In this document: piece by piece, positions 166 through 19,865 of the stretch
How the letters are laid out: each line of letters begins with the position of its first letter
Numbering within the stretch: position 1 is the stretch's first letter
Source: a bacterium
GTDB taxonomy: Bacteria; Bacteroidota; Ignavibacteria; UBA10030
Reading direction: 5' to 3'
NCBI GenBank assembly: GCA_043803945.1
Contig: JAZDJN010000076.1
Coordinates: 1-20,399, forward strand
Length of the DNA: 20,399 nt
Program-made: the position numbers and the translations under genes
The notes under the pieces: model-generated
The model's input: only the letters and a program-made list of their open reading frames with translations
Databases searched by the model: none
What the model was told of the DNA's origin: nothing

Positions 166-3100
166 CTACCGTGCCTTATAGACTTTTGCATACACCACCG
201 GCACGACAATCAACGTTAACAGCATGGAAGATGTTAATCCCCCAATGGTGCCGACCGAGAGCTGATACCAGAGGCTCGATTTATCTCCCATTAAGAGCAA
301 GGGAAGCATTCCGCCGATTGTTGTAAGTGTGGTCATTAAGATCGGTCGAAGACGTGTAGATGCAGCGTCAATCAGGACGGACTCGCTCCTGTTTTCTCCA
401 TGCAGGTGGCGGGCAAGATAGTCTACCAGCACAACAGAGTTGGTGACAACAATGCCGATAAGCAATACCACCGCTGCATAGCCGCCGCGGCCGAAAGGAA
501 CCTCCATGAGATAAAAGGCAAGAAAGAGCCCGATGAGAGAGAGTGGTATTGCAAGGATGACGATGAAGGGCTTAAGGAGTGATTCATAGAGAGAAGCGGT
601 AACCATGAAAACAATTGTAAACGCCAGCAGGGCAATGAGGATAAGGGAAATCTCCTGTTCTTCACGAAATCTGAAGAATTCATAACCCTGGTTGAATTGA
701 TAGCCGCTCGGCAAAGGCATAGCCTTTATTGTTCGCTCGAGATGCTGGGTACCATACTGCCATGGGCCTTTATATTCATAGGCAATGTTCCGGATGTATT
801 GTTGATTCTCGCGGGTAATTTGCGACGGCACACGGCGCTCTTCGAGCTTGATCAATTCACCCAGGCGAACCTGATCGCCGCGGCCATTGGCGATGACCGA
901 CTTCTGTAAATCATCGACGGAATAGTTCCGATACCCGATGAATTTAACGATGTACGGAACACGCTCTCCTTCAATATTGAGTGTGCTTTGCGTTACCGAA
1001 CCGCGGGAGAAATTCAGAATTGCCCGGACCACCTCCGCCACGGTGAATCCATGCCGTGCAATGGCATCGCGATCAACCGTGACAAACAGCTCAAATGTTT
1101 TTCTCCCCCACCCTCCTTCGATATCGACATCCTGCACGCGTGGATTACGCGAGAGCTGTTCCTTAAACTCCTCCGCAATTTCTCTGACTCTATTGTAGTT
1201 GTAACCCAATATTCCCACACGAAAGCTCATACTGCCGCCCTCACCACCGCTATAAAAACCGGGACCGAATCCGCTGACACTAATCGACGCGCCTCCTGTC
1301 TGCGCTGCAAATAATGTCAACTGATTTTTGAGTTCATAGGGAAGCGCTGTCATGGCAGCGGAGTCGGCAACATCGATTCTGATGACAGCGGAGCCCTCGG
1401 CAACACGCGTCGTTACTTTTGCAATGCTGCTGCCGTATTCCAGTGCCTGCCGCTCAATATCGGAGGCGATCTTGTCGAACCGCTCAAGCTCCGTTCCCCG
1501 CGGAAAGCTTACATATACACTGAGATAGGTGCGTTCGACATAGTTCCATATCTCTCCTTTGGAGACTTTTGCGAAGAAAAGATGCGATGAGCCGCCGAGG
1601 ATGTAATTAATGTACGGTTTTGCTGTAAGGTAATACTCGCTGCCAAAGGTGTAGCCATACAATGCAGAGAGCAGCGATTGCGATTCGATTTTATCCGGCA
1701 TCAGCCAGACCGGCAGGCCAAATATCCATATTGTGAGAGCGATAACGAACTTTTTCCTCCTGAGTGAAAACCGGAGGAATGCCTGATACAGCTTCGTTCC
1801 TTTGTCGCCAATCCATTCAAGAGGAGAGATTCGAAATGGCGTCAGGTCGATCCGGTAAGTGACTGTCGGTATCAAGGTGAACGAAACGAAGAGGGACATT
1901 ATCAAGGAGACTGCAACCGCGATACCGAAGTCGAGAAAGTACGGCTTCAGGTCGGGGGGAAGAAATTCGAGAGGCAGCAATGCACCGACGGTTGTGATGG
2001 TTGATGCAATGACAGGAAGCGCAATTTCATGGACAGCATGAGAGACGTTACTGCTGCTTGCCTCATCCTGCCCTGCGAACATACTCCCTCTCCTCATAGG
2101 AGAGGGAAGGGGTGAGGCTGTAATTGCACTATCTGCGGAACTCCATCCTTCCCTTCCCCTAAGAGGGGAAGGTATTTTTATTTCTTGTAGGTTACTATGC
2201 CGATAAATATTATCCAGCACGACTATCGAATCATCGACAAGGCGTCCGAAGCCGAGGACGAGCCCGGCCATGGTAAGCAGGTTCAGACCGATGCCGAGTC
2301 CCCAGAAGATGAGAAACGTTCCAGCGAGCGAGAAGAAGATAGAGGAAAGCACAAGTGCCGATGCCTTAAGGCTTCTCAGAAAGAGCGTCAGCACAAAGCC
2401 GATGCAGAGCAGTGAGATGATGATTTCCTTGTAAAGGTTATCGAGATCGCTGCGAAGCTTTTCACTCTTATCGGACTCTTTGATCAATTTTAATCCTGGT
2501 GGAAAATCTTTTTGAAGCTCGGCGAGTTTATCAAAGACTGCGTCGGCAAGCTTCAGTGTGTTAACTCCCTGTTCTTTATTAATGATGAGTGTAATTGAAG
2601 GTTTTCCGTTGATACGGTAAAAACTCTTCACCTCGGCAACGCCATCGCGCACGGTGGCGATATCCTGCAGGCGCACCGGCACATCATTCGGCAGTCGGGC
2701 AACGATCTGTGATTCAAGCTCATGCAAGTTTGTGGTGCTGTTACGGACAGCGATGATGATCTTTGCTCCCTGCTCATCGACAGAGCCGACAGGCTTATTA
2801 AATTCGATCTCTCTCAAGCGTGAGGTAATTTCGTCGCTGTTGAGGCCGAGCGCAACGACCTTTGCCGGATCTAGCGAAACCTGCAGTTCCCGTTTTTCTC
2901 CTCCAATAACCTGTGCATTTGCAATACCCTTCAGGGAGAGCAGGGCCGGCACGATTGTCTCTTCTGCATATTTGCTGAGCGCCTGGGCAGACTGGCCGCC
3001 GGAGAGTGAATAGGAGAGGAAGCCCTGCAGGTCGCGCAAATCGCGTGGCACATAGCGGGATATAATTGGTGGAGATGCACCCGGCGGCATGCTCTCGGCA

Positions 3101-3450
3101 AAGGCGGCGAGTTTCTCATTCAACTCCAGCCGCGCAAAGTTCATATCGATGCCCGGTTCGAATTCGAGATCGACCGATGTCTGGCCTTCATCGGATGTAG
3201 AGCTTACCTTGCGGACACCCTGGACGGTGTTGGCAATCTCTTCGATCGGTGCGGTAATAAATTGCTCCATGGTTTCCGGCGAGGTGTTGCCCCACGATGC
3301 AGCGATAGAAAGGCGCGGATATTCTTTTTCCGGTGCAAGTTCCAACGGCAGGTGCATAAACGCAAAGGTTCCACCGACGAGCAACGTGCCATAGAGCATG
3401 CTGACGGCAACAGGGCGATTGATGAGTTTTTCGAAGAAGTGGTGCGACAT
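166..3450 (-). CDS. RND efflux permease subunit (AcrB/AcrD/AcrF family), 1094 aa
   Basis: N-terminal RPVAV + TM1, 'E.FITAPIEE', TM4 'GRLVDDSIVV', TM11 'RLRPILMTTLTT', C-terminal 'GGLTSSMLLTLIVVPVVY'. About 40 aa palindrome-derived insertion after TM4. Confidence 0.95.
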   Translation of the reverse strand: MSHHFFEKLINRPVAVSMLYGTLLVGGTFAFMHLPLELAPEKEYPRLSIAASWGNTSPETMEQFITAPIEEIANTVQGVRKVSSTSDEGQTSVDLEFEPGIDMNFARLELNEKLAAFAESMPPGASPPIISRYVPRDLRDLQGFLSYSLSGGQSAQALSKYAEETIVPALLSLKGIANAQVIGGEKRELQVSLDPAKVVALGLNSDEITSRLREIEFNKPVGSVDEQGAKIIIAVRNSTTNLHELESQIVARLPNDVPVRLQDIATVRDGVAEVKSFYRINGKPSITLIINKEQGVNTLKLADAVFDKLAELQKDFPPGLKLIKESDKSEKLRSDLDNLYKEIIISLLCIGFVLTLFLRSLKASALVLSSIFFSLAGTFLIFWGLGIGLNLLTMAGLVLGFGRLVDDSIVVLDNIYRHSNLQEIKIPSPLRGREGWSSADSAITASPLPSPMRRGSMFAGQDEASSSNVSHAVHEIALPVIASTITTVGALLPLEFLPPDLKPYFLDFGIAVAVSLIMSLFVSFTLIPTVTYRIDLTPFRISPLEWIGDKGTKLYQAFLRFSLRRKKFVIALTIWIFGLPVWLMPDKIESQSLLSALYGYTFGSEYYLTAKPYINYILGGSSHLFFAKVSKGEIWNYVERTYLSVYVSFPRGTELERFDKIASDIERQALEYGSSIAKVTTRVAEGSAVIRIDVADSAAMTALPYELKNQLTLFAAQTGGASISVSGFGPGFYSGGEGGSMSFRVGILGYNYNRVREIAEEFKEQLSRNPRVQDVDIEGGWGRKTFELFVTVDRDAIARHGFTVAEVVRAILNFSRGSVTQSTLNIEGERVPYIVKFIGYRNYSVDDLQKSVIANGRGDQVRLGELIKLEERRVPSQITRENQQYIRNIAYEYKGPWQYGTQHLERTIKAMPLPSGYQFNQGYEFFRFREEQEISLILIALLAFTIVFMVTASLYESLLKPFIVILAIPLSLIGLFLAFYLMEVPFGRGGYAAVVLLIGIVVTNSVVLVDYLARHLHGENRSESVLIDAASTRLRPILMTTLTTIGGMLPLLLMGDKSSLWYQLSVGTIGGLTSSMLLTLIVVPVVYAKVYKAR
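2084..2172. repeat. Inverted pair of REP-like hairpins (second family) inserted in frame in the RND gene
   Basis: TCCCTCTCCT-CAT-AGGAGAGGGA (2085-2107) and CCTTCCCCT-AAG-AGGGGAAGG (2152-2172). They translate as PSPLRGREGW...SPLPSPMRRG. Confidence 0.8.
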
Positions 3451-3743
3451 GAAAATACTCAGGTGCTAATGTGGTTAGAATTCTTAGGTCAGGGAGGATT
3501 AGATATTTTATAGAAAGATGTTAAGTTTTATTAAATTTTAAAACTATCTTTTGTTTATGATTTATTTCTTTTCCCTTATTTCTGCTTTCTTCACATTCTA
3601 GAATATAGCGATAATTAATAGGCGATTAATAAATTATTGGAGTGATAAAGAAAATACTCTATCAGGTGTAAAGACAATATATTAGTAGGAGAGCATAAGA
3701 ATTATTATTCAGAATTCCTCGGAGAGTCTGAGTAAATAGAAAT

Positions 3744-4139
3744 TCAATTATTCAGATTCATTCTTTCCTTCTGTTCGATTTCATCATCCTTCAATTTAAA
3801 ATATTTATTAAAAAGAGGTCTCTTTTTCCAGAGGTATGTGAGAAGTAAACCATAGATAATCAACAGAACAATATAATATTCAATACCTGGGGGAGGGGGT
3901 ATAATCTTTAACCAGGTTAATAATAAATATGTGGGCACGGTTGGTAGATAGCTATAGAATAATACTGAACCAATATATTTGGATTTCCGATAGAATAGTA
4001 AGATGCAATATATAATCACGATGATACTATAGATGCTAAGCGGTGATATACTACCAGTAATTATCATGCGGTATATAGAATATGGTATTACTAATGTAGC
4101 GATAAACAATCCTTTTTTTAAAGAGGGCTTATCTCCCAT
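3744..4139 (-). CDS. Small integral membrane protein (~4 TM), 131 aa, function unknown
   Basis: Four hydrophobic stretches and a charged C-terminal tail. AAAGGA SD before the ATG; co-oriented with the operon; AT-rich. Confidence 0.7.
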   Translation of the reverse strand: MGDKPSLKKGLFIATLVIPYSIYRMIITGSISPLSIYSIIVIIYCILLFYRKSKYIGSVLFYSYLPTVPTYLLLTWLKIIPPPPGIEYYIVLLIIYGLLLTYLWKKRPLFNKYFKLKDDEIEQKERMNLNN

Positions 4140-4159
4140 TTTGTTCCTTTGCTAAATTA

Positions 4160-4726
4160 TTAAGATTTTGAAAGCGTTTTTAATAGAAGTTCTCTAATTG
4201 AAGTTACATCTCTTTTTTCAAAGGGGAAAGCTTTCTTAACAAAACGGTCGGATGATGTATTAATCAGAATACAACTGTTTTTTATTCCAATTTTCGAACT
4301 CCCTTCTACAACATAACTAGTAAACGATATTGAATGTATTTCCTTCCAGCGCTTTGAAAATCTTTCCATTACAATGGGAGAACGGTTTTCTTTTTCGAAA
4401 AGAACAATTATTGCACTTGATGATTTTGAATTTTCAGACTCCAACAATTTACAAACAATAAAAAGTGCTTCCTTACAGCCACCGCAACCTAGGTCGCTCA
4501 TTTTCAGCCATATTATTACTTTAATTGTATCCAGACAATATCTTTGCCTTGAGTGGATTTCTATCGTTTGAATATCCGTGGCTGCGAGCACGTCAGATGA
4601 TTTCAATTCAGAAGCTTTTTGCAATGACCTTCCTTTCTCCTGTTGGCTCATGACAATGAATATACCTATACAAATGCCAGGTAATATTAAAAAGAATAGA
4701 ACAAATCTGAGTTTGGATAATATCAT
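4160..4726 (-). CDS. Membrane-anchored CxxC (thioredoxin-like) protein, 188 aa
   Basis: N-terminal TM; beta-strand KVIIWLKM followed by CGGC and a predicted helix. The Trx fold is inferred, not confirmed. Confidence 0.6.
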   Translation of the reverse strand: MILSKLRFVLFFLILPGICIGIFIVMSQQEKGRSLQKASELKSSDVLAATDIQTIEIHSRQRYCLDTIKVIIWLKMSDLGCGGCKEALFIVCKLLESENSKSSSAIIVLFEKENRSPIVMERFSKRWKEIHSISFTSYVVEGSSKIGIKNSCILINTSSDRFVKKAFPFEKRDVTSIRELLLKTLSKS

Positions 4727-4784: not shown

Positions 4785-4905
4785 CTTGTTCCCAAGCTCC
4801 GCTTTCTTTACAATCATCTCTCAAATCACCCATCTGTTTAGTTCGTCTCTAACAGCCGAAGCAGAGCTTCACATTCCACGTTCCCAAACAGAGCTTGGGA
4901 ACGAG
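4785..4905. repeat. REPIN-like doublet with collapsed left end
   Basis: CTTGTTCCCAAGCTCCGCTTT (4785-4805), spacer similar to those at 14221 and 16243, GAAGCAGAGCTTC (4858-4870), GTTCCCAAACAGAGCTTGGGAACGAG (4880-4905). Confidence 0.85.
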
Positions 4906-4925
4906 AAGTAAGAAGCTCAAGAAGA

Positions 4926-5987
4926 TTATTTTAGCTTTAATCGATAGTGCACAATCGTTGGATTTCGAAAATCTCCGTCTTCATCAGGCTTGGCTGATTT
5001 GAGAAGATAAAAAGAATCTTCGCTTACAGAATAATCCTCAAACTCTTCCGGAAGTTCTACTTCGGATGCTATCGGAGTACCATCTTTCAAATAGATATCC
5101 AGCCAGGAATATGGTTTATTGCCGTCGATTGGAGAATCCTGCTGGAGGAATACAAAGATAAATTTGTCTTTCAGCATGGATATATTTCTGATAGCTGATA
5201 TTTTCCTCAGATACTCTACAAAGCCTTTCCCACTATTCAGCATAACTGCATCAGGTTTTTTATAAGGGTGATAAGAGGAAGACGGCGCCCCAAAGATTAG
5301 AATCAATTCACCGCGTGCATTGAACTTTTTAATCGCATACTCCCATCTCTCAAGCTCATAGATATTATCCTCGCTATCCATGACAATCCCTCCGCCAAAC
5401 ATTCCCAGCCTTCTGTCATATTCTTTTGAAACAACTGCGAACATGCCCGTCATATTCCCAAGGCTGTCATATCTGGTTATCGTTAACTCTGAGGGCTGCG
5501 GATCGGTCCTCCAGAAAAAGAATTCAGACTTCGAGTTCTGAAGAAATTTGTGGCCATACGCATTCATTTTAATTGAACGCAGAAATGATCCATCTGGTAA
5601 GTATTGAATAATCTTCCGTTGATAGGAATCATAAAGAAGGATATTGCCGTGTCGATCAGAGGTAATATCCATCGCATTGATATACTCATTTGGACCTTTT
5701 CCATTACCCCCCAATATCCCCGCAAATCTTCCATCCTGATGAAACCGGAACACTTGTTGTTTTGAGGATGAGCTAAGAACAAGATATCCGCCGCCAGGCA
5801 CGATAGAGAATCCGCCAATGCGTCCGATCAAATGATCCTTGCCCGTGGAGAGCTGAATTTCATTTACCTTTTCAAAGGCTTCATTGAAGTGTTTCTTCGG
5901 GCCCGGTTGCTGATTATTTGGTGAGCACGATAGTATGAGACAGAGTATTATTGCCAGGAATACAGAAACGAATGAAGTGCTTTTCAT
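4926..5987 (-). CDS. 6-bladed beta-propeller (NHL/DUF5128-like) lipoprotein, 353 aa
   Basis: Lipobox ILSC; GGNGKGPNEY motif; repeated D..GNI.LYD / Y..DG.F blades; GAAGGG SD. Confidence 0.85.
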   Translation of the reverse strand: MKSTSFVSVFLAIILCLILSCSPNNQQPGPKKHFNEAFEKVNEIQLSTGKDHLIGRIGGFSIVPGGGYLVLSSSSKQQVFRFHQDGRFAGILGGNGKGPNEYINAMDITSDRHGNILLYDSYQRKIIQYLPDGSFLRSIKMNAYGHKFLQNSKSEFFFWRTDPQPSELTITRYDSLGNMTGMFAVVSKEYDRRLGMFGGGIVMDSEDNIYELERWEYAIKKFNARGELILIFGAPSSSYHPYKKPDAVMLNSGKGFVEYLRKISAIRNISMLKDKFIFVFLQQDSPIDGNKPYSWLDIYLKDGTPIASEVELPEEFEDYSVSEDSFYLLKSAKPDEDGDFRNPTIVHYRLKLK

Positions 5988-6127
5988 CGCTATCCCTTCT
6001 TATTCAAATATCAGGCTTGAAGATTTATATCTATGCATAATTTACTTGAAAGCGATTACAATTGTTTTCTTCACTAACGATTGTTTATCTACACTTGCAT
6101 ATTCTTTTCGGTGTGACTTGCATTTCT

Positions 6128-6175
6128 GAAGCAGAGCTTCGCTCTCTGCATTCCCAAACAGAGTTTGGGAACGAG
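6128..6175. repeat. Orphan right-type REP end
   Basis: GAAGCAGAGCTTC-N9-ATTCCCAAACAGAGTTTGGGAACGAG. No left partner seen in 5990-6127. Confidence 0.85.
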
Positions 6176-6184
6176 ATTCTTTAC

Positions 6185-6850
6185 CTTGTTCCCAAGCTCT
6201 GCTTGGGAACATTTTTTATAAAGCTCTGCTTACTTCTCTTCTGACAATCTCCAGTCCGTGGCAACTTCTACCAAACCTTTTTTACCCTCATAATCCCGAG
6301 CACTCGAATACCTCCAGTGCGATGGCTCGTCGACATATCCTCTCCGAACAGGATTGTAGTGAATGTACTCGATCTTTTGGATCAACATCGTTTCGTCAGA
6401 TAGCAATTGCGGGTGACTCCCCTCTTGCCACACCTGATACATACTCTCCTTTTTGTGAACACATTTTCTCAGCTGAAGCTCTTTCAACATACCAGCATGA
6501 CCCTTTTCTTCCAATCGATCAATAATCTTTCGGGCAGTAAAGGACTTAAATTCCTTCATTACTTTTGGTAATTTGTCTGCATGAGCAATCAGGTGGAAAT
6601 GATTTTCTAATAGTACATAAGCAAAAATTATAACTGAACGGTCGATGTGAATAAACTGCAACGAGTTTAGGATGATCTCTGCAAAACATGGTTGAGAAAA
6701 AAGCGGAAGCCAGTCCACAACCGTCATGGTCATAAAATAGGGTTGATGAGTTTCATAGAATCTGTATCGAGTGCGTGACATCGTGAACGTTCCTGAATAG
6801 TAGAAGCAGAGCTTCTATGTCTATGTTCCCAAACAGAGTTTGGGAACGAG
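6185..6850 (-). mobile_element. RAYT element 1 bounded by inverted REP ends
   Basis: Left end CTTGTTCCCAAGCTCTGCTTGGGAAC (6185-6210); right end GTTCCCAAACAGAGTTTGGGAACGAG (6825-6850); RAYT ORF between them. Confidence 0.85.
6230..6781 (-). CDS. rayT: REP-associated tyrosine transposase (Y1 HUH, IS200/TnpA-REP-like), 183 aa
   Basis: YFMTMT, HUH motif ENHFHLI, FKSFTA, WQEG, catalytic-Tyr motif YIHYNPV, W.YSS. Flanked by REPs. Confidence 0.92.
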   Translation of the reverse strand: MSRTRYRFYETHQPYFMTMTVVDWLPLFSQPCFAEIILNSLQFIHIDRSVIIFAYVLLENHFHLIAHADKLPKVMKEFKSFTARKIIDRLEEKGHAGMLKELQLRKCVHKKESMYQVWQEGSHPQLLSDETMLIQKIEYIHYNPVRRGYVDEPSHWRYSSARDYEGKKGLVEVATDWRLSEEK

Positions 6851-6896
6851 AAGTAAATTCTATTTTTCCACGAGATGCTCGAGTAACGTTGTAAAA

Positions 6897-8017
6897 TTAA
6901 ATGGTGTACTCAATCTTATATTTCTCAATCCAACTTGTGAGATACTTGCTTTGAATCAGGATATAGACACTCGAATCAGGTCCAATAACTGCACATTTAT
7001 ATTCATATCCATGATCATAGGGAAGCGTGGGGAGTGCGAGACGGGCAGTGTGTTCTCCGTTCCTGTTGTAATAATCGATAATTGACTCTTTACCTTCAGC
7101 ATCCGTAACAACAGCGAGCAGATAGTTACCCACCATAGCAATGCCAATCAATTTCCCAGAAGGGAGATTTTTCAGTTTTACACCAAAAGAAGTTTCTGAG
7201 AGAGATGACTGAAAATCGAAACGGCTTGTCGTGCTGAACGAAACGGGCATAGTAAATTCCTGCTCACTATGGCTCTTCAAATCAAGCATCATCATTCGAT
7301 AGGGATGTCGTTGACTGTATACTATTCCCGTTGATGATAGGGGCAGCATCCGTGTCATATTAGCTGTGTAACTGAACGTAGCCAGAGAAGGGCGTGCTCT
7401 TACATCAGAGTTCAGTATTTTATTAATAATACCCTCCTGTGGCTCTACAATTGTTCCATAGAATTCAATTGGCAGGGGTGAATGAATCTTGTACATATCT
7501 ATCGGTTTCGTGGTAAGTCTGAGAAAATATCTGCTCGTCAAAAAATAGAATCATTCAGGAGAACCGCATCGTCACAGTCATCCTTGAGAATCGAGCTCAT
7601 TATATATTTGCCTACTCTGGAAAAGAGGGTGATAATTTTACTTCTACTATCAAGAACCAAGAGTCTACTATCAGATTCTATTCGCAACCTGTTAATGTCT
7701 TGAAATTCACCCGGACCCTTTCCCTTTCGACCGAACTTTCTTATTTCCTCTCCAGTCTTCGCATCAAGAACCCGGACATAACATTCCGATCCATCGCCTA
7801 AGAAAAGCTCTTCGTTATTTGATACTGCTATATCTCGTATTTTATAATAGGAGGCTTGACTCTCACTCAGAGTATCAGGTGTACCAATAGTAAGAACATG
7901 CCTTATTTTTCCATGAAGGATCGTAACATCTTTTCGCTGTGAATATAACTGGCAATACAAAATTGTGACGATAATTAACACATATCGAATTATTCTCACC
8001 GATGTTCTCTTTTTCAT
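6897..8017 (-). pseudogene. Frameshifted 6-bladed beta-propeller exported protein (ORFs 7538-8017 + 6897-7541; 373 aa if joined)
   Basis: The N-part has a signal peptide and GRKGKGPGEF. The two parts align colinearly with 11784-12911. One extra T in the T6 run (7540-7545) fuses them. Confidence 0.8.
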
Positions 8018-8026: not shown

Positions 8027-8164
8027 CTCGTTCCATAGCTCTGCTATGGAACGTTGCTTTGTAAGCTCCGCTTATATCATGGGAACCCACACATACTAGA
8101 TGTCCATCTCACTAACGAAGCAGAGCTTCACATTCTACGTTCCCAAACAGAGTTTGGGAACGAG
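8027..8164. repeat. REPIN-like doublet with variant left hairpin
   Basis: CTCGTTCCATAGCTCTGCTATGGAAC (8027-8052), TAAGCTCCGCTTA (8062-8074), GAAGCAGAGCTTC (8117-8129), right REP 8139-8164. Confidence 0.85.
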
Positions 8165-8169
8165 AGTCT

Positions 8170-11713: not shown

Positions 11714-11783
11714 TTGTAATTGCGTATTTAATAAGGGGTAATAAGTTATTTCAAAATTCTTCTCACTTATATAAATAGCCACA

Positions 11784-12911
11784 TCATAATTGAATAGAGA
11801 ATCTCTCTACCCAGTTCAAATGAAGTTCATTGCTCACCAGCAACAACAATTCTTGGTTTCCTTTGAATGCAGCGCCAAAAACTTTTAGCCCTTTTTTGAG
11901 TGGTGGAATTATCAATCTTTTCGAAAAAACGCCAGAGAGGCTGTAGCAATCCAAATAATTACTCTGCCCATCGATACTTATTATCGGAACAAGCAAATGC
12001 GTCCATCCATTTTTTATTCCTAATGCACTCCCAGAATTATTCATCTGCATAGAACTTCCCCTGTCAATGATCTGTATGTCTAAACCACTTTGTGTATCAA
12101 AACCAACGCTGGGATTTACCTGTTCAATCGTTTTTGTTTTTAAATCATACCTGATCAAGATATATGGATTTCTCTGGGAATAGAGTACGCTTTGGTTATC
12201 GGCAAGTAACACCACGTTTGTCATTCCAAAAGAAGATAACATACTTCGAGCCGAATTTTTTAGAAGGTTATTATTAAATAGTTTTAGCAACCCCTCTTTT
12301 GGTTCAATAATTTTCCCAAATTCATCAAGAATTCTATTATTCTTTAGTGAAATAATTCTTAACGGTTTAAATTGTTGATCCAACAGGAAACTACTTGTTA
12401 TGAGCTGAGTACCGTTGATAAAATCTATATCGTCCGTAAGTCTTTCCAAAGAGATTGTGCGAATGAGTTTTCCATTCTCTGAGAATATTGTACAACGCCT
12501 CAATGTGTTATCTATCACGGATAACTGTTTGTCGTGAAAGATTTTCATTGGACCTAATGTTTTAAACTCTCCCGGGCCACTGCCGATTTTACCTATTCGA
12601 AATAGTTCACTTCCCGTTTTTAGCGAAAACACTCTTATACTTCCTGCCTGTTGATCGGCCAAATAGAGCTTGCCATCCTCTGAACATTCAATACTTCTAA
12701 TACCATAAAAATATATGTCATTGGTCGTATCGGGGAATCCAAACGATGAAATCTTGGTGATTTTTCCTTTGATTGCTTTCACATTTAATTGACAAAGCAC
12801 TGTCGTAGATGTAAATAGAATGATAGCAAACACAAAACTGTATAATATTCGGATACACCAATTATTGATTATCAAGATATTCAATCCTTCTGGAATTCGT
12901 TTTATCTTCAC
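11784..12911 (-). CDS. 6-bladed beta-propeller exported protein, ~375 aa (start uncertain)
   Basis: Signal-like hydrophobic segment ending TTVLCQ; DGKLYLAD; GKIGSGPGEF. Paralog of 6897-8017 (SQRNPY/SQRHPY). Confidence 0.85.
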   Translation of the reverse strand: MKIKRIPEGLNILIINNWCIRILYSFVFAIILFTSTTVLCQLNVKAIKGKITKISSFGFPDTTNDIYFYGIRSIECSEDGKLYLADQQAGSIRVFSLKTGSELFRIGKIGSGPGEFKTLGPMKIFHDKQLSVIDNTLRRCTIFSENGKLIRTISLERLTDDIDFINGTQLITSSFLLDQQFKPLRIISLKNNRILDEFGKIIEPKEGLLKLFNNNLLKNSARSMLSSFGMTNVVLLADNQSVLYSQRNPYILIRYDLKTKTIEQVNPSVGFDTQSGLDIQIIDRGSSMQMNNSGSALGIKNGWTHLLVPIISIDGQSNYLDCYSLSGVFSKRLIIPPLKKGLKVFGAAFKGNQELLLLVSNELHLNWVERFSIQL

Positions 12912-12946: not shown

Positions 12947-14083
12947 TCATCTCTTCATCCTGTAGATTTGGATTCTTGCATTGTGTTCATTTTGTTTTAT
13001 AAGAGTCTCTTCAATCTTTCTGCCATTGATATTTAATCCGGCGGGAAGAAAAACGTATAGCACATCATTAAGAACAAATGAATGTGATACCAGATATGGT
13101 ATAACGATACCGAGCATAATTGCTGCCCCATTTAACGAATAGATATCCATAAAATGTTTTCTAGATGATATCGTCTCGGGAGTCATTCTAAATAGAAGGA
13201 TAAGGTCGTTGTTGAGAAGCTGTATTCTGCCTACGGTGGAATTGGATAGCTCATACTTCCTCGCATCTCTCATATTTCTTTGTATTTCCGCTGTAGGTAT
13301 TTTTTCTGAGGCCTTCCAGTCAGAAGGAATATCACCGAATGAATCCAGAAGCTTACCATTTTCGTTAAACACTTGAATTCGATATTCATAGGGAGAGGCA
13401 TGATAAATTAATCCGGTTCTATCGATTACTATGCCGCCACCCTCTCGTTGAAATGCTGGTGTAAATGACTTTGGATGAGGAGCAAATCTTACCAGTTCCT
13501 TTCCCTCAGGATCATATTTCACCACAGTTCCTTCCGTTGAACCTTTTCTGGTTACTATGCCAATTGCATACATGTAAATATTCTTCGCTGCATCGAATTG
13601 GAACTGTGTGAAGGGATTACCTAGCATGAAGGTGGCATTGTCGTACTCGCCGGTCGAGGTATAACGAATTAATTTCCCCTCTGTGCTGAAAATATAGATT
13701 TTACCATCCCGGTCGAACTGTGTATCATAAGCTTCAATGTATTCCCCGGGACCTCTTCCGTTACTTCCAATTTCGCGTACAAAACTGCCACTGCTGTCGA
13801 GCAAGTAGCAGCGTCGAGTTGTATAACGATCGTAAATCAAAAATCTTCCATCAGTACCTACAATGATCTGCGGATGTTGACCAAGCAGGAAGCCTTTCCG
13901 TTCCGATAAGATAATTTGTCGTTCCAATGCAAAGATCTCATTAAAATCATTTGCATCCGTGAAGAGAACAGGGTAAGTGTCTTTGAATGTTATTGGAATA
14001 TCTCTTTTGGGAGGTTTCGCACAACCAGAGATAATTAACACGAAGAGAGTAACATAAAGTAGTTGTACAACGAATTGTTTCAT
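12947..14083 (-). CDS. 6-bladed beta-propeller lipoprotein, 378 aa
   Basis: Lipobox ISGC; GSNGRGPGEY; DRDGKIYI and EYRIQVFNENGKLL blades; AAGGAG upstream. Confidence 0.88.
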   Translation of the reverse strand: MKQFVVQLLYVTLFVLIISGCAKPPKRDIPITFKDTYPVLFTDANDFNEIFALERQIILSERKGFLLGQHPQIIVGTDGRFLIYDRYTTRRCYLLDSSGSFVREIGSNGRGPGEYIEAYDTQFDRDGKIYIFSTEGKLIRYTSTGEYDNATFMLGNPFTQFQFDAAKNIYMYAIGIVTRKGSTEGTVVKYDPEGKELVRFAPHPKSFTPAFQREGGGIVIDRTGLIYHASPYEYRIQVFNENGKLLDSFGDIPSDWKASEKIPTAEIQRNMRDARKYELSNSTVGRIQLLNNDLILLFRMTPETISSRKHFMDIYSLNGAAIMLGIVIPYLVSHSFVLNDVLYVFLPAGLNINGRKIEETLIKQNEHNARIQIYRMKR

Positions 14084-14214: not shown

Positions 14215-14220
14215 ATCAAC

Positions 14221-14369
14221 CTCGTTCCCAAGCTCCGCTTGGGAATATGTGTTTTTTTAAAGCTCTGCTTTCTTCACAATCATCTTTCAAGTTGCCCATC
14301 TACTTGGTTAATCTCATCACTGAAGCAGAGCTTCTCGTTTTGCGTTCCCAAACAGAGTTTGGGAACGAG
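14221..14369. repeat. REPIN-like doublet (149 bp)
   Basis: Left REP 14221-14245, AAAGCTCTGCTTT, spacer, GAAGCAGAGCTTC 14322-14334, right REP 14344-14369. Near-identical to 16243-16394. Confidence 0.92.
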
Positions 14370-14426
14370 AAGAACTTCTGGAGGTAAGCGAGTCTATAGA
14401 CATCCCAGCGATGGGAAAGTGATGCT

Positions 14427-15458
14427 TCACCTTAATGTATACCTCCCAATCTTGGGATTCGCCTCCGGATAATCCTCCAGCTTGACGTAGATGCTATTGC
14501 CGTGACATCCAAGGACATCCTTTTCAAACGGAATTGACTTTACAAGCAAGTTACCATCCGTGTCATAGAAATCGAGTTGATTATCGTACTGGATGAACAC
14601 AATCCCCTTATCGAGAACAAGTGGTCCTTGCATCAGCACCGGACTTCTACGGCCTTCAGATTCTTCATAGATAATCTTCCCTTCACTAAATTCTTTTATG
14701 AGCTTGCCCTCTGAATCATACTTCCGGATTCTGTAAAAAAGCGGATTTATTTCGTAGATGAAGCCCGATGTATCGATGACCATGCCGTTGTATCCAGCCG
14801 AGAAGTTGAGGTCGCTAATTTCTTCTGGGATGAGAGCAAACGATATCATATGTTTTCCAGTAGAAGAAAATTTATGGATCGTTGGAAATATGTTGGGCTT
14901 TTTTGATCTTATGAAGCTCGGTTGAAGCATTCCGTCATAAAGGAAGATTTCATCGTTTTTATTGATATGAATGAAATACTCAGTTCTATCGGGGAACATC
15001 ATCGATTTATAGTTGTAATTCGAGGTATATACCAAAACTTTTCGACCCATATAATCATTAAGGAATATCTCTCCCTCTCTGTTTATCGCAACACTAAGGG
15101 GAGTTTGATATTCCCCCGGTCCATGTCCCTGGCCTCCCAAATCACTAAGAAACTTACCTGTGGTGTCAGCAATGAAGACGGTTTTCGATTGCCATCCATC
15201 GCAGATGATTATATTACCTTGCTGATCAATATCGAAGTCGGTTATCAACGAGATGAAATGATCTTTGCCGGATGATAGTTGTACCTCTTTCTCCAGCACA
15301 GTAAAGTCAGCGAAGGACTTTGCTCCTTTAATAAGATCTAAGGATGCAGGTGGCGGGGGAGCAGCCGTTGTCTTGGTCTTTGACTTCTTACAACCCGACA
15401 ATGAAAAAATTAGGAAGACCAGTACCGTTGCGACCACAGAGCTACTATGATATGCCAT
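14427..15458 (-). CDS. 6-bladed beta-propeller lipoprotein, 343 aa
   Basis: Lipobox LSGC; Pro linker; QLSSGKDH shared with 4926-5987 (QLSTGKDH); GGQGHGPGEY. Confidence 0.88.
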   Translation of the reverse strand: MAYHSSSVVATVLVFLIFSLSGCKKSKTKTTAAPPPPASLDLIKGAKSFADFTVLEKEVQLSSGKDHFISLITDFDIDQQGNIIICDGWQSKTVFIADTTGKFLSDLGGQGHGPGEYQTPLSVAINREGEIFLNDYMGRKVLVYTSNYNYKSMMFPDRTEYFIHINKNDEIFLYDGMLQPSFIRSKKPNIFPTIHKFSSTGKHMISFALIPEEISDLNFSAGYNGMVIDTSGFIYEINPLFYRIRKYDSEGKLIKEFSEGKIIYEESEGRRSPVLMQGPLVLDKGIVFIQYDNQLDFYDTDGNLLVKSIPFEKDVLGCHGNSIYVKLEDYPEANPKIGRYTLR

Positions 15459-15553: not shown

Positions 15554-16153
15554 TCAACCTCGTTCCCAAGCTCCGCTTGGGAACGTGTGTTTTTTAAAAG
15601 CTCTGCTTTCTTCTGGCAACCTCCAATCCGTGGCAACTTCTACCAAACCATTATTACCCTCATAATCACGAGCACTCGAATACCTCCAGTGCCGCGGCTC
15701 ATCAACATATCCTCTCCAAACCGGATTGTAATGAATATAGTCGATCTTTTGAGCCATCATCCTCTCGCTGGAGATCATTTGCGGGTGGCTTCCCTCCTGC
15801 CATACTTGATACATACTCTCCTTTTTGTGAGAAGATTTCCTCACATGAAGCTCACTCAATAATGCAGCAGGACCGCTTGCTTCTAATTGATCAATAATCT
15901 TTCGTGCCGTATAGGATTTGAATTCTTTCATTACCTTCGGTAACTCTTCCGCATGAGCAATCACATGGGAATGGTTTTCTAATAGTACGTAAGCATAGAG
16001 TATAATTCTACGTTCTGTATGAATAAACCGAAGTGAGCTTATGAATATCTCTGCAAAACTCGGTTGAGAAAAGAGTGGAAGCCAGTCCACGACCGTCATG
16101 GTCATAAAATAGGGCTGATGAGTTTCAAAAAATTTATATCGTGTGCGGGACAT
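15554..16153 (-). CDS. rayT: REP-associated tyrosine transposase copy 2, 199 aa from the ATG at 16153
   Basis: About 77% aa identity to copy 1 by hand count. ENHSHVI and YIHYNPV motifs. Reads through the left REP to a stop at 15554. Confidence 0.9.
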   Translation of the reverse strand: MSRTRYKFFETHQPYFMTMTVVDWLPLFSQPSFAEIFISSLRFIHTERRIILYAYVLLENHSHVIAHAEELPKVMKEFKSYTARKIIDQLEASGPAALLSELHVRKSSHKKESMYQVWQEGSHPQMISSERMMAQKIDYIHYNPVWRGYVDEPRHWRYSSARDYEGNNGLVEVATDWRLPEESRAFKKHTFPSGAWERG

Positions 16154-16222
16154 AGCAAACCTTCTTGTATAGTTAAAGCAGGGCTTCACACTTTGCGTTC
16201 CCAAACAGAGTTTGGGAACGAG
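15559..16222 (-). mobile_element. RAYT element 2 bounded by inverted REP ends
   Basis: Left REP 15559-15584 and right REP 16197-16222; same layout and length (~665 bp) as 6185-6850. Confidence 0.85.
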
Positions 16223-16242
16223 ACCTTATCGCCTCATTCGAC

Positions 16243-16394
16243 CTCGTTCCCAAGCTCCGCTTGGGAATGTGTGTGTGTTTTAAAGCTCTGCTTTCTTCAC
16301 AATCATTTTTCAAGCTGCCCATCTACCTGGTTAATCTTTCATCATTGAAGCAGAGCTTCTCGTCCTGCGTTCCCAAACAGAGTTTGGGAACGAG
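16243..16394. repeat. REPIN-like doublet (152 bp)
   Basis: Left REP 16243-16267, right REP 16369-16394; spacer nearly identical to that of 14221-14369. Confidence 0.92.
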
Positions 16395-16398
16395 AAGG

Positions 16399-16643
16399 GT
16401 ATAGGATTTGAATTCTTTCATTACCTTCGGTAACTCTTCCGCATGAGCAATCAAATGGGAATGATCTTCTAATAGTACGTAAGCATAGAGTGTAACTCTA
16501 CGGTCTGTGTGAATAAACCGAAGTGAGCTTATGAATATTTCTGCAAAACTTGGTTGAGAAAAGAGTGGAAGCCAGTCCACGACCGTCATGGTCATAAAAT
16601 AGGGCTGATGAGTTTCAAATATTTTATATCGTGTGCGGGACAT
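16399..16643 (-). pseudogene. rayT: 3'-truncated RAYT copy 3
   Basis: Near-copy of 15909-16153 (6 aa differences over ~82 by hand count). Homology ends after FKSYT, 4 nt from the REPIN end, so the catalytic YIHYNPV is missing. Confidence 0.9.
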
Positions 16644-16664
16644 AGCAAACCTTCCTACATGGTT

Positions 16665-16712
16665 GAAGCAGAGCTTCACACTTTGCGTTCCCAAACAGAG
16701 TTTGGGAACGAG
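16665..16712. repeat. Right-type REP end upstream of RAYT copy 3
   Basis: GAAGCAGAGCTTC-N9-GTTCCCAAACAGAGTTTGGGAACGAG. Confidence 0.92.
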
Positions 16713-16736
16713 ACCAATATTCTCACACCCTCTCGC

Positions 16737-18047
16737 TCATTTCACTCTACCCACAACTCTAACCTTCGCGTCATGCGCAAGCGTGTAATGGCCCCCGATC
16801 AATACCGTGTCTCCTGGCACCACCTCTTTGTATTGACCACGGAGAATTTCTATAAACTCTTCGTTCTCTTCGCCAACATCGACATAGTTCCACTTTGCCA
16901 GGTCGCCTTCTTTGTAGAAGATTAGATTGCGCTGGTCGCGGACCAGAAGCGCCGCCTTGGGTACAAGCAACCGGTTTGTAAAAATATCCGTCTCGATTCG
17001 AACAGTAGCAAACATCCCAGGACGAAGCTGCGGGAGAAACCCGGTTGAAATTGCTGATTGGCGAGTGACGATTGACGGTTGAAAAGATTTAGTGCCATCC
17101 TTTAATTCTATTGTGACCTTTACGGTTTTTGTTTTGGTGTCGACGATTGGATTAATGTAGATGATCGCACCAAAAAATGTTTTCGCCGGGTATGCATTGA
17201 CAATCACTTCTGCCCTGCGGCCGAGATGCAGTTTTCCAATCTCACTCTCCAGTACTTCCACATCTACCAGCAGGCTGGAGAGATCAACAAGCTTCAACAC
17301 CGTTCTGCCCATCGAAATCTGCATGCCGGGTGTGATATCGCAGTCGGCAATGTAGCCGGTGTAAGGAGCCTTGATTTCCGTGCTTTCGAGATCGAACTTT
17401 GCGCGTTCAAATGCTTCACGCGCAGAGCTGAGACCCGTACGGCTTGCCTGGACATCGTTCCGATGAGAGTGGAGAATGGCGATATCGGCTTCGTAGTTCC
17501 TTTTCTTCCGGGCATATTCAATTTCATTCACCTGAAGCCCTCGCCAGAGTTTTTCAAGCTCTTCCAAATTCTTTTCCGCTTCTTTTAGCTGCTGTGATTG
17601 TTTTACGCTATCAACATCTTCGGCGTAGGGAGAATAAACCTGTTGACGGTATTCAATTTGCGCCGCTAATAGTGCAGAAGCCGCTCGGTCATAGGAGATC
17701 CGTTTTTCCCGTTCATCGAGTTTCATAAGCAGATCGCCCTGCCGGACGAATGAGCCGTTGTGAACTTCGACCTGCAGCGCTTCGCCGCTGGTTCGGGCAA
17801 CAATTTCTGCCTCGCGTTTCGCACGCAGTGTGCCTGTTGCCGTAAGCCATTTAATGAGGTTCCCCCGATGGGCCAATGCGGCATCGACCGGAAATATAAC
17901 TTCCGTCGTTGACTGGGTGGATTTTGTCGGCGAGCCTTCGGTTTGTTGAACATCTGTTCCGTCGGAAGATGAAGATGGTTTCAGGAGATACCACAGAAGA
18001 ATTCCGATTGGAATGAACGCAAGAATGAGGTAATAGGATGTTTTCAT
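16737..18047 (-). CDS. RND efflux periplasmic adaptor (membrane fusion protein), ~436 aa from the ATG at 18047
   Basis: MKTSYY + TM anchor; lipoyl-like 'G.FVRQGDLLMKLD' and 'IKAPYTG'; coiled hairpin; LRPGMFA; LLVPKAAL. Confidence 0.93.
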   Translation of the reverse strand: MKTSYYLILAFIPIGILLWYLLKPSSSSDGTDVQQTEGSPTKSTQSTTEVIFPVDAALAHRGNLIKWLTATGTLRAKREAEIVARTSGEALQVEVHNGSFVRQGDLLMKLDEREKRISYDRAASALLAAQIEYRQQVYSPYAEDVDSVKQSQQLKEAEKNLEELEKLWRGLQVNEIEYARKKRNYEADIAILHSHRNDVQASRTGLSSAREAFERAKFDLESTEIKAPYTGYIADCDITPGMQISMGRTVLKLVDLSSLLVDVEVLESEIGKLHLGRRAEVIVNAYPAKTFFGAIIYINPIVDTKTKTVKVTIELKDGTKSFQPSIVTRQSAISTGFLPQLRPGMFATVRIETDIFTNRLLVPKAALLVRDQRNLIFYKEGDLAKWNYVDVGEENEEFIEILRGQYKEVVPGDTVLIGGHYTLAHDAKVRVVGRVK

Positions 18048-18193
18048 ATGCGCCGGTGTCTTGTGATGTACGAGGAGAACGGTTGCGAATGATGAAGATC
18101 CTTCAGACTGTTCGGTCCATCCTCTCTCCATTATTAGTGATCTAGAATTCTCAATACTTCGACGAGCGATAGACGGTCTGTAGAGTTGGTAGG

Positions 18194-18222
18194 ATGGTAG
18201 CAATAATTCTGTTTGATGTCAA
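18194..18222 (-). promoter_or_regulatory. Sigma70-type promoter for the efflux operon
   Basis: Minus strand: TTGACA (18222-18217), 17 nt ending in TGC (extended -10), then TACCAT (18199-18194). Confidence 0.7.
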
Positions 18223-18421: not shown

Positions 18422-18444
18422 AAGGTGAGCAGAAAAGGAAAACT

Positions 18445-19485
18445 ATGAAGGAACGATTTAGAATATCCACTCGAACGACGCATGTCTTGACGTTCTTCTT
18501 CGCTCTCACCGCCGGCATTATTATCTACCTCGTAATCCATGATTCCAATTCAATGGCTTTCCCTCCCGCCCAGCCAATAACCTACAGCATGTTACTCGAT
18601 CCAGGTGCTACTCTGGTTGACACATCGGCTATTATAAGCGTACCAGGAAGGATGCAATTTGATCCGGAGGGAAATGTGTACATACTTGAAACCCATTTTA
18701 GGGGAGGTCTTCAAGATCGTATATATAAGTTTGATCCAAAATTCAATCATAAAAAACTGATCGGGGAGGTAGGTCGGGGACCTGGTGAATACACTCGCCC
18801 AACGGATATCTGGATAGATAAACGAGGGTATCTCTATGTACCAGATGTGGGTAATCAGAGGATTAGTATCTGGAACAATACTGACACACTCGTTAAGCTG
18901 ATTACAAATATTTTTATCCCCTCTGACACGCGAATTGCCGTTGATAGTAAAGGATTCATCTATCTCAGCAGCTTTTTCACAGACAGTCTTGTAAGAAAAT
19001 TATCACCAGACGGCTCATTTTTGAGACTCTTCGGCAAAAAGAATCAAAATAAGGATAGATCCATTGTCCGATTGGAGAATGAAAACTCGATTGATTTTGA
19101 CAGCGATGGGAGATTATGGATGTCGTTCCGGTACAGGCCCGTCATAAGAACATATGATACAACAGGAGTTCTGCTCTGGGAGAGAGAGTTTCTTACACCG
19201 GAGATGGAAGAGGAGCGAAAAAAATACGCAGGAAAGCCAGGCGCGCTTGAATACAACGTCGATATTGCTTCCGTACCATGGGGAGGAATACTTCTTTTCA
19301 CACGAAATCATATCAATTTATTGAACCATAAAACGGGTGCAATCCAATTTCGATATCGCACTCCGGAATTACAATACGGTATGGTTGATGATATTCTGTT
19401 CTGTCAGAATGATTCCTCTCTCTGGTGTGCGAGTGCACATTTTGGGCATATCCTTAAGTTCGATTTTGCTCCTGATACACAGTAA
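18445..19485 (+). CDS. Membrane-anchored NHL-repeat/6-bladed beta-propeller protein, 346 aa
   Basis: N-terminal TM; GEVGRGPGEYTRPTDIWIDKRGYLYVPDVGNQRI is a canonical NHL blade; AVDSKGFIY. Confidence 0.9.
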   Translation: MKERFRISTRTTHVLTFFFALTAGIIIYLVIHDSNSMAFPPAQPITYSMLLDPGATLVDTSAIISVPGRMQFDPEGNVYILETHFRGGLQDRIYKFDPKFNHKKLIGEVGRGPGEYTRPTDIWIDKRGYLYVPDVGNQRISIWNNTDTLVKLITNIFIPSDTRIAVDSKGFIYLSSFFTDSLVRKLSPDGSFLRLFGKKNQNKDRSIVRLENENSIDFDSDGRLWMSFRYRPVIRTYDTTGVLLWEREFLTPEMEEERKKYAGKPGALEYNVDIASVPWGGILLFTRNHINLLNHKTGAIQFRYRTPELQYGMVDDILFCQNDSSLWCASAHFGHILKFDFAPDTQ

Positions 19486-19550
19486 CGATGGAGTAATTGA
19501 TAAACAATTACTATCAAATAACAATATCCAATCATTGGAGGGTAAATCAA

Positions 19551-19865
19551 ATGAAGACGCAACAATTAATCAGGATCGTTTCATCATTTTTGATTGTACC
19601 GTTAATATTCATCATTTTAGGTTTATCGAGTGCGTCTGGGGAAACACAACGTTGGACAGTTTATTGTTATTGGGGTGGCAGTGAACCCCTTAAATGCGAG
19701 CACGCCAATTGCATAGACGGACAATCTTGGGATCGTGATGGGATATGCGGAACATCACACACATACGCAACAGCTGCGAGGTGCCAATTTCCCGTAAATG
19801 ATAAATGTAATTGTACACCAGATGCCGATAGCCCTCTTTGTACACAGGATCATTGGCCAAATTAG
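19551..19865 (+). CDS. Small secreted cysteine-rich protein, 104 aa (8 Cys)
   Basis: GGAGG at 19537-19541 before the ATG at 19551; signal peptide MKTQQ...LSSASG; all 8 Cys fall in the ~74 aa mature part. Confidence 0.75.
   Translation: MKTQQLIRIVSSFLIVPLIFIILGLSSASGETQRWTVYCYWGGSEPLKCEHANCIDGQSWDRDGICGTSHTYATAARCQFPVNDKCNCTPDADSPLCTQDHWPN

Follow-up and report, generated by a model that had tools for sequence, protein, structure and literature searches.

The contig examined here (C76; all of its 20,399 bp are called the window below) belongs to an Ignavibacteria-like genome (G000; 5.54 Mb in 118 contigs, rated 100% complete by marker genes) and carries the genes of a pump of the resistance-nodulation-cell division (RND) family interleaved with genes for propeller proteins. 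Read along the minus strand between 18203 and 166, the pump operon consists, in this order, of membrane fusion protein (MFP), RAYT3, RAYT2, propellers 5, 4 and 3, the permease RND2, propeller 2, RAYT1, propeller 1, a protein with a CGGC motif, a 131-aa protein and the permease RND1, where RAYT denotes a tyrosine transposase associated with repetitive extragenic palindromic (REP) elements. An earlier reading of this DNA (the original prediction) had described MFP and the two permease genes as split by five propellers, a CxxC protein and a small membrane protein; all of these genes are present, but one of the propellers is frameshifted, and RAYT genes and REPs intervene as well. It had also placed a sixth propeller and a secreted protein with eight cysteines on the opposite strand, and both are indeed encoded divergently, on the plus strand (18445-19485 and 19497-19865). 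Propellers accompany this pump in its relatives too, together with redox genes and small Cys-rich genes; we refer to such a set, propeller included, as the cassette, and it is highly probable that pump and cassette are functionally linked.

Pump, propellers and neighbouring small genes

The adaptor gene MFP (16737-18203, minus strand) passes the cut-off of TIGR01730 (149 bits against 94.9) and matches PF16576. Both permeases, the proximal RND2 (8282-11782, minus strand; MdtB-like) and the distal RND1 (166-3450, minus strand; 1094 aa; MdtB/MdtC-like), match ACR_tran (PF00873) over their full length, with 737 bits (E 3e-221) and 549 bits (E 2e-164), respectively, against a cut-off of 28. The RND2 open reading frame (ORF) extends over 1166 aa, with the likely start (MSLSS) at codon 24. 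The equivalog cut-offs of NCBIfam are missed (best scores 342 bits against 1774 for MdtC and 409 against 1584 for MdtB), and the nearest solved structure is MdtB for both permeases (9lyq_B; E 8e-79 for RND1 and 3e-104 for RND2). On sequence grounds, the two are MdtB/C-like permeases and not orthologues of MdtB and MdtC. Orthologues in relatives share 47-62% identity with RND1 and 55-68% with RND2, and those of MFP 39-53% in four relatives. An Asp-Asp pair in transmembrane helix 4 (TM4) of RND1 (D406, D407) is invariant in four aligned orthologues, and the translation of RND2 reads Gly-Asp-Asn at the position of this pair; these TM4 positions may correspond to the proton-relay residues of AcrB.

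All six propellers score above the gathering threshold of PF17170 (DUF5128; 22.9 bits) and carry the motif G-x-G-P-x-E-[FY]. Five of them lie on the minus strand: propeller 1 (4926-5987; 74 bits), propeller 2 (6897-8017, in two ORFs at 7538-8017 and 6897-7541; 31 bits on the N-terminal half), propeller 3 (11784-12911; 34 bits), which abuts the RND2 ORF, propeller 4 (12947-14083; 58 bits) and propeller 5 (14427-15458; 46 bits). Propeller 6, on the plus strand (18445-19485; 31 bits), has an N-terminal membrane anchor. Lipobox-like N-termini mark propellers 1 (ILSC), 4 (ISGC) and 5 (LSGC) as predicted lipoproteins. An AlphaFold2 (AF2) model of propeller 1, the only one that was folded, has a mean predicted local distance difference test score (pLDDT) of 91.3 and a predicted template modelling score (pTM) of 0.88 and corresponds to a six-bladed NHL-type fold. 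Its best Foldseek match is BF0058 of Bacteroides fragilis (4raa; E 1.8e-13); other close matches are a further exported Bacteroides protein (3s9j) as well as NHL domains found in Brat, Thin and TRIM proteins, and more distant neighbours include peptide-amidating lyase (PAL) and virginiamycin B lyase. A role of the propellers as peptide-amidating lyase or glutaminyl cyclase was considered and rejected, as the peptide ends, inspected by eye, show neither a C-terminal Gly nor a regular N-terminal Gln or Glu.

Propeller 2 is a paralogue of propeller 3, to which tblastn aligns both of its halves. Its reading frame shifts at a run of six T near 7541 (junction region 7520-7560), so that the gene may be a genuine pseudogene, contain a tract prone to slippage or have been misassembled. 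In a quick tree of the family, propellers 1, 4 and 5 group with a propeller of a related locus (L030:785). Propeller 3 pairs with L018:2488-3615 (Shimodaira-Hasegawa-like approximate likelihood ratio test 100; 38% identity), which likewise lies directly upstream of RND2, and propeller 6 forms a clade with a propeller on contig C104 of the same genome and two propellers of L020. Compared with 1.84 billion representative proteins, propeller 6 matched mostly giant proteins with multiple NHL repeats, and a word-based search gave four weak relatives. A profile built from 30 propellers (members at E < 1e-18) finds 11 family members in the genome. Six of these are on this contig of 20.4 kb, and the six other RND loci of the genome have none within a distance of 10 kb. 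The arrangement of pump and propellers is thus beyond chance.

Between propeller 1 and RND1 lie two genes for small membrane proteins. The 188-aa CGGC protein (4160-4726, minus strand) has an N-terminal transmembrane helix followed by a hydrophobic strand and the CGGC motif (residues 81-84), which follows a beta strand and opens a helix. It is built like eight CxxC proteins that adjoin propellers in relatives, and the two cysteines are the only invariant feature in an alignment of these nine membrane-anchored proteins. Its ESM Atlas model (pTM 0.70) resembles models of redoxin, TlpA and thioredoxin domains (TM-scores of 0.62-0.72), the best match in the Atlas being the non-MauE part of 316-aa MauE fusion proteins. 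Based on this model and the alignment, a membrane-anchored protein of thioredoxin fold (MauD/TlpA/DsbA-like) is the most likely identity of the CGGC protein, in agreement with the disulfide-handling role proposed for it in the original prediction. Sequence searches returned only the CGGC protein itself, and its best relevant match among PDB profiles had an E-value of only 0.61.

The 131-aa protein (3744-4139, minus strand) is predicted to span the membrane with four helices and occupies the position that MauE has in three relatives (L021, L028 and L029). It was rejected as a MauE protein, since hhalign gives a probability of 0.2% against six cassette MauE proteins and it has one Cys and no CXC. 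It matches nothing in Pfam or NCBIfam and only unnamed clusters in the Atlas, and BLAST of the 131-aa and 188-aa proteins against the MauE and AhpC/TSA proteins of relatives revealed no similarity. Genome-wide searches gave no DsbB, no VKOR and three MauE matches (on C21, C82 and C12), and, going by these family assignments, MauE may be the organism's only membrane disulfide generator.

The ORF downstream of propeller 6 (19497-19865, plus strand; likely start ATG at 19551) encodes a 104-aa protein with a signal-peptide-like N-terminus and eight cysteines, whose predicted mature part is ~75 aa long. A Pfam search with E-values up to 10 gave nothing but a chance membrane match and no methylamine dehydrogenase (MADH) light chain. 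Analogous Cys-rich ORFs, dissimilar to this one, adjoin propellers in relatives. In the window as a whole, Rfam had no match and a Pfam search of the ORFs found no ABC transporter gene.

Pumps and cassettes in related genomes

A search with an alignment of RND1 orthologues yielded 27 loci. Nineteen of them (47-61% identity) come from metagenome-assembled genomes (MAGs) of Ignavibacteria or labelled as Bacteroidota or Chlorobi, and eight (27-38%) from seven Gemmatimonadota-labelled MAGs and one unclassified bacterium (L043). Gene content was determined by Pfam searches of those 148 of 270 ORFs shorter than 900 aa from 21 loci that lie around the pump genes, and of 27 further ORFs from the five loci examined first. 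Since L019, L025 and L027 have no usable flank, 16 of the 19 loci are informative. Each of these 16 contains at least one propeller, as judged from Pfam, direct comparison and a profile built from Pfam-positive relatives with the window left out; this profile recovers all six propellers of the window with E-values from 1e-37 to 8e-20. A thiol-redox gene is present in 12 of the 16 loci and an ORF with a signal peptide and at least four cysteines in nine; the original prediction had proposed to look for such a co-occurrence of this permease subfamily with propellers and Cys-rich ORFs. The redox genes encode membrane-anchored CxxC proteins of 172-215 aa that Pfam does not recognize (L020, L021, L023, L024, L026, L029, L031 and L033), MauE (L020, L021, L028, L029 and L034), proteins of 569-571 aa with an AhpC/TSA domain (L029 and L030) and a DsbA-like protein (L032). 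In the two AhpC/TSA proteins (L029:4648-6363 and L030:2093-3802) the AhpC/TSA-thioredoxin domain is C-terminal and preceded by ~420 unexplained residues; a 29%-identical paralogue is encoded on contig C87 of the genome studied here (C87:158156-159763).

RND2 and RND1 are adjacent in eight loci and separated by cassette genes in five as well as in the window, and in six RND1 is without RND2 in the stretch analysed. The paralogous pair stays together in 13 of the 19 orthologous loci and in seven of the eight Gemmatimonadota-type loci, adjacent or nearly so across two phyla. Because of this persistence, the heteromeric RND pump of the original prediction is plausible, and the two permeases probably form a mixed trimer. 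In one Gemmatimonadota locus (L040) three propellers lie between RND2 and RND1. In the relative G003 the MFP orthologue shares a contig with RND2 and lies 3.7 kb upstream of it, and in G017, G031 and G005 it is on other contigs; cassette units follow it in G017, G031 and G003 and also precede the RND2 orthologue in G017. Around half of the family propellers in four of five relatives' genomes are located on contigs with RND or MFP genes, as counted with a model built from the same loci. Fragments of RND1 or RND2 mark cassette borders in several places (L020:6821-6946, L035:538-636, L045:6276-6491 and L055:11106-11648), which suggests that cassettes have been duplicated together with the 5′ ends of pump genes. 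Between the propellers and RND2 of G017 (L055:5610-6486) we also noted three small genes of 114, 79 and 87 aa that look toxin-antitoxin-like by reading only.

Cys-rich secreted proteins were searched for in all six frames as ORFs of 40-130 aa with a K/R-containing start and a 12-residue hydrophobic core, followed by at least 4 Cys making up at least 7%. The scan gave 45 ORFs in the 5.54-Mb genome, three of which adjoin propellers (on C76, C12 and C82). In the relatives' loci (0.42 Mb) it gave 15 matches, or 13 without duplicates, one of them probably spurious, against a background expectation of ~3.4. Most of them precede a propeller: in L028, L029, L030, L031, L032 and L033 the Cys-rich ORF is on the propeller's strand and 54-176 nt upstream of it, in L035 it overlaps the start of the propeller ORF, in L021 three such ORFs are found 389-785 nt upstream of the next propeller, and in L020 and L047 they stand just downstream of one. 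Further examples were spotted by eye, namely L046:491-757 (10 Cys) and two at the RND2 locus of G017. These small proteins differ freely in length and Cys number.

Taking the relatives and the rest of this genome together, a full cassette would consist of a Sec-exported Cys-rich peptide, a six-bladed propeller of the NHL type (often a lipoprotein) and an anchored CxxC protein of thioredoxin fold, often joined by MauE as a DsbB-like disulfide generator and by an AraC-type regulator the size of MarA. Elsewhere in the genome, such units comprise a 175-aa anchored protein, DUF5128, MauE and a 95-aa peptide with 10 Cys (C82:16250-18679, L050); an HTH_18 regulator, a weak MauE match, a 73-aa peptide with 7 Cys, a 304-aa protein and DUF5128 (C12:99986-103391, L049); and DUF5128 with a 185-aa anchored CxxC protein (C12:11845-13554, L051). 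The six cassette MauE proteins share an invariant CGC, and in L020 two fusion proteins (373-393 aa) contain MauE.

HTH_18 regulators with a single domain and a length of 123-160 aa are found with both MFP and cassettes, and a short AraC-type regulator follows MFP in G003, G017, G031 and G005. Its orthologue in the genome studied here stands at the very start of contig C82 (C82:236-586, L052), apparently truncated at its C-terminus, and on the actual chromosome this contig might border on the locus described here. The cassette genes of the window have a GC content of 31-43%, the RND genes one of 50% and the genome as a whole one of 46.5%; in four relatives, cassette genes are 2-8 GC points below pump genes.

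Repeat elements and erosion of the locus

REP hairpins of the form GTTCCCAA-N7-TTGGGAAY occur at 12 sites in the window, with none expected from shuffled sequences, and are arranged as two-hairpin units with fold z-scores of -5 to -7. They occupy nearly every intergenic gap, as singlets or inverted doublets (coordinates without strand unless given). A REPIN-like doublet lies between the CGGC gene and propeller 1 (4789-4908; repeat families D2, D5 and D6, hairpin core 4880-4902) and another at 14216-14372 (fold z -5.1); a single two-hairpin REP separates propeller 2 and RND2 (8109-8167; fold z -7.0). Three RAYT copies are present, two of them intact. RAYT1 (6230-6781, minus strand; 183 aa) reaches 102 bits with NF047646 against a cut-off of 80, and its translation contains the H-x-H and Tyr motifs. 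RAYT2 (15554-16204, or 15554-16225 including its end REPs; minus strand; 216-aa ORF) reaches 101 bits and is 77% identical to RAYT1. The truncated RAYT3 (16323-16694, minus strand; 48 bits) shares 90% identity with residues 1-99 of RAYT2. Both full RAYT genes have REPs at each end: a pair at the 3′ end of RAYT1 (6120-6239, cores at 6150 and 6188) and one element upstream of it (6795-6853), and those around RAYT2 and RAYT3 at 15554-15613, 16167-16397 and 16657-16715. Repeat, family and hairpin evidence combine at 16238-16715 (minus strand), where a REP doublet is followed by RAYT3 and one more REP.

The contig holds 11 of the 19 matches of the REP core in the genome. Close RAYT orthologues in other genomes (47-61% identity) are mostly single and located away from the RND locus, and the REP core is absent from the RND loci of the five relatives scanned (L013-L017), which indicates that the REP/RAYT invasion is particular to this genome. 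With RAYT genes and REPs in the gaps, the RND genes are therefore separated by mobile-element DNA as well as by cassette genes. The REP/RAYT family has colonised these gaps and now sits where relatives have their regulator and peptide genes. The copy of the cassettes at this locus is eroded: the frame of propeller 2 is shifted, the contig lacks MauE and a Cys-rich partner is left only at propeller 6.

Both RND genes contain in-frame, palindromic and G+C-richer insertions. That of RND1 (2071-2190, minus strand) adds ~40 codons of palindromic DNA to the loop after TM4 and is missing in three orthologues; pieces of 34-43 nt from it recur at 84-91% identity on five other contigs. In RND2 the insertion lies at ~11087-11281, and the variable loop around residues 168-232 contains a 67-nt piece that is repeated on contig C12. 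Altogether, pieces of the two insertions recur on contigs C67, C65, C104, C105, C3 and C12, and they recall repeat elements that insert in frame into coding genes.

Interpretation and relation to known systems

The reading that we tentatively prefer is a conserved union of a heteromeric MdtABC-like RND pump with cassettes of Cys-rich peptide, propeller and thioredoxin-like protein, with or without MauE, which would act through export by Sec, oxidation, propeller and pump. In such a pathway Sec would first export the Cys-rich peptide, and MauE would then probably oxidise it via the CxxC protein, as suggested by family knowledge and by the fusions of MauE with thioredoxins; support for disulfide maturation is good. 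The propeller might next hold or process its own peptide, a step that adjacency suggests and to which we give an even chance. The original prediction had considered the propellers as possible receptors, chaperones or immunity proteins. Doubtful is the final step, in which the RND pump would expel the peptide from the periplasm much as the enterotoxin STII leaves the cell through Sec, DsbA and MacAB-TolC. We regard as unlikely the most specific form of this proposal, in which Ignavibacteria and uncultured phyla allied to them would have recruited a dedicated heteromeric RND pump as the outer-membrane exit for disulfide-knotted ribosomal peptides exported by Sec and oxidised by MauE, and the fast-diversifying NHL-propeller lipoproteins would be immunity partners or adaptors specific to one peptide each. 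Such a system for secreting peptides or for competition would be undescribed in print.

Several observations weigh against the preferred reading. Among the pump components, the outer-membrane factor is missing: none of the genome's 20 matches to OEP (PF02321) is on C76, and an OEP gene is adjacent at five of the six other RND loci of the genome. Pumps also occur without cassettes, as a contiguous MFP ... RND2-RND1 cluster, in L038, L041 and L043, with OEP confirmed in L038 and L041, the two loci whose OEP ORF was searched. Conversely, the three cassettes described above on C82 and C12 (two on the latter) have no RND gene nearby. The loci compared come from related MAGs and are not independent, and some of the unusual spacing between pump genes stems from REP/RAYT elements, which the original prediction had not noted. 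RAYT3 and RAYT2 stand in the position of the AraC-like gene, which is absent from the window, and MauE (PF07291) has no match on the contig. Only one Cys-rich gene, that beside propeller 6, is present for six propellers, and the gaps beside propellers 1-5 contain REPs only. No homologue of the 8-Cys protein was found, and it is absent from a collection of 5.8 billion proteins; its ORF has therefore been reported by no gene caller. When 612 small ORFs were compared with one another by BLAST, clustering at E 1e-3 brought together nothing but AraC-like ORFs and chance pairs, and no sequence similarity was detected among the Cys-rich ORFs. The CGGC protein has no Pfam match, its proposed thioredoxin fold rests on a third-party model, as AF2 without an alignment gave a poor prediction (pLDDT 51.6), and the Pro expected before strand 3 is replaced in it by Asn-Ser-Cys and present in five of the eight relatives, in an alignment of low identity. 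Finally, RND pumps of the HAE-1 type are known to transport small molecules and some linear peptides and are not known for folded proteins of 5-8 kDa, and the only pump documented for a disulfide-bonded peptide is MacAB, which is of the ABC type.

Pump and cassettes could also be linked for another purpose, with the pump protecting the producer by clearing the peptides, or a small toxic or redox-active compound tied to them, from membrane and periplasm, or with both belonging to a co-regulated envelope or thiol-stress response under an AraC regulator the size of MarA or SoxS. Such a link without secretion would agree with the short HTH_18 regulators found with both MFP and cassettes, with the resemblance of both permeases to ordinary drug pumps of the MdtB/C type, with cassettes that lack a neighbouring pump and with a locus that lacks an outer-membrane factor gene. 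Shared regulation accounts less well for the tight and repeated coupling, with cassettes that immediately precede the RND genes or lie between them at all 16 informative loci, for the abutment of propeller 3 on the RND2 ORF and for the RND fragments at cassette borders, which suggest copying together with the starts of pump genes. None of these observations separates export from protection. We rate this explanation as somewhat unlikely.

The propeller and the Cys-rich protein could also be the two subunits of a periplasmic enzyme or receptor similar to MADH (MauB and MauA, matured by MauE and MauD), with the pump removing its product or ligand. Gene for gene the correspondence is complete, as mauB, mauA, mauE and mauD have their counterparts in propeller, Cys-rich protein, MauE and CxxC protein. 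Other features speak against it: none of the Cys-rich ORFs matches the MADH light chain in Pfam, the propellers are of the six-bladed NHL type and not seven-bladed like MauB, no MauG-like gene occurs in the flanks submitted to Pfam, and a conserved subunit that bears a cofactor would not be expected to vary as freely in length and number of Cys as the small proteins do. We consider such an enzyme improbable. That the layout is a mere insertion accident, a drug-efflux operon having served as landing site for mobile or fast-moving DNA, would suit the low GC content of the cassettes, the concentration of REP/RAYT elements and REP cores here, the in-frame repeat insertions in both RND genes and the cassettes elsewhere in the genome, but is very improbable given propellers in all 16 informative loci and in one Gemmatimonadota locus even though L013-L017 lack the REP core and the RAYT orthologues lie away from the RND pair, the position before RND2 kept by propeller 3 and its L018 counterpart, and the share of family propellers on RND or MFP contigs in relatives.

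If the link between pump and cassette is functional, RND pumps, usually read as exporters of drugs or metals, would handle folded ribosomal peptides, and the DUF5128/NHL propellers of Bacteroidota and Ignavibacteria would gain a first testable partner in the adjacent Cys-rich peptide. In organisms that have neither DsbB nor VKOR, the cassettes would likewise offer MauE a set of likely natural substrates. Many genes for Cys-rich peptides go entirely uncalled in annotation. The window itself, as a decayed and repeat-ridden copy, calls for caution, and intact relatives such as the G003 locus are better suited for experiments. The original prediction knew of no characterised system with this layout, and our literature searches, which covered neither subscription journals nor supplements, found no description of DUF5128 propellers, of MauE with propellers or of RND genes with NHL and thioredoxin genes.

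Among known pumps, the heteromeric MdtABC-TolC and MuxABC-OpmB of Proteobacteria are similar in that an adaptor gene is followed by two paralogous RND genes which are kept together across lineages. The likeness to MdtABC-TolC extends to MdtB as nearest structure for both permeases and to the NCBIfam models of MdtC and MdtB among the best matches. In contrast to that system, the permeases of the window score far below the equivalog cut-offs, an outer-membrane factor gene is missing, propeller, thioredoxin-like and peptide genes are interleaved with those of the pump, and a mixed trimer is only presumed.

The repeats agree with known REP/RAYT systems (REPINs) in RAYTs that pass the NCBIfam cut-off, in inverted two-hairpin REPs at their flanks and in intergenic REP doublets. 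Usually, a single RAYT is found together with REPs that are spread over the chromosome. Here, two and a half RAYTs and 11 of 19 REP-core matches are packed into 20 kb, although the assembly may under-report REPs elsewhere.

The order of events proposed for the cassette peptides has its closest parallel in the E. coli enterotoxin STII, which, as far as described in the accessible part of the source, is secreted via Sec, DsbA and MacAB-TolC (PMC5985334). As in STII secretion, a small Sec-exported peptide would acquire disulfides in the periplasm, and a tripartite pump that uses an MFP as adaptor would then drive it past the outer membrane. MacB is an ABC-type transporter that works with TolC and without propellers, whereas the pump of the window is of the RND type, has no outer-membrane factor gene nearby and is a candidate for such transport.

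The mau cluster (mauB, mauE, mauD and mauA) combines the same four kinds of genes, for a propeller, MauE, a thioredoxin-like CxxC protein and a small disulfide-rich exported protein. According to the introduction of a recent preprint, MauE and MauD mature methylamine dehydrogenase's small subunit with its six disulfides (10.64898/2026.03.05.709764). The same preprint, in the text available, reports that MauE can replace DsbB in E. coli, that it needs its CXC motif to do so and that fusions to domains of the thioredoxin family make up 8.2% of MauE proteins (10.64898/2026.03.05.709764). The CGC of the cassette MauE proteins corresponds to the active site that MauE needs for this replacement (10.64898/2026.03.05.709764). 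In the available text of that preprint, neither the word "propeller" nor any word beginning with "neighbo" occurs (10.64898/2026.03.05.709764). The window differs from the mau cluster in having no MauE, in small proteins unlike MauA and in the absence of MauG and amine-oxidation genes.

A further parallel is offered by the bacteroidetocin (class IIf bacteriocin) clusters of Bacteroidota, which, in the portion of the source available, are described as combining a Cys peptide with a thiol oxidoreductase and an exporter, both dedicated to it, and with a multi-pass membrane protein (PMC6671954). Their lineage is said there to be devoid of general disulfide machinery, and their peptide genes often go unannotated (PMC6671954). 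Bacteroidetocins, as portrayed there, have leaders of the double-glycine type and an ABC transporter that includes a peptidase domain, whereas the locus described here combines Sec-type signal peptides with an RND pump, its MFP and propellers.

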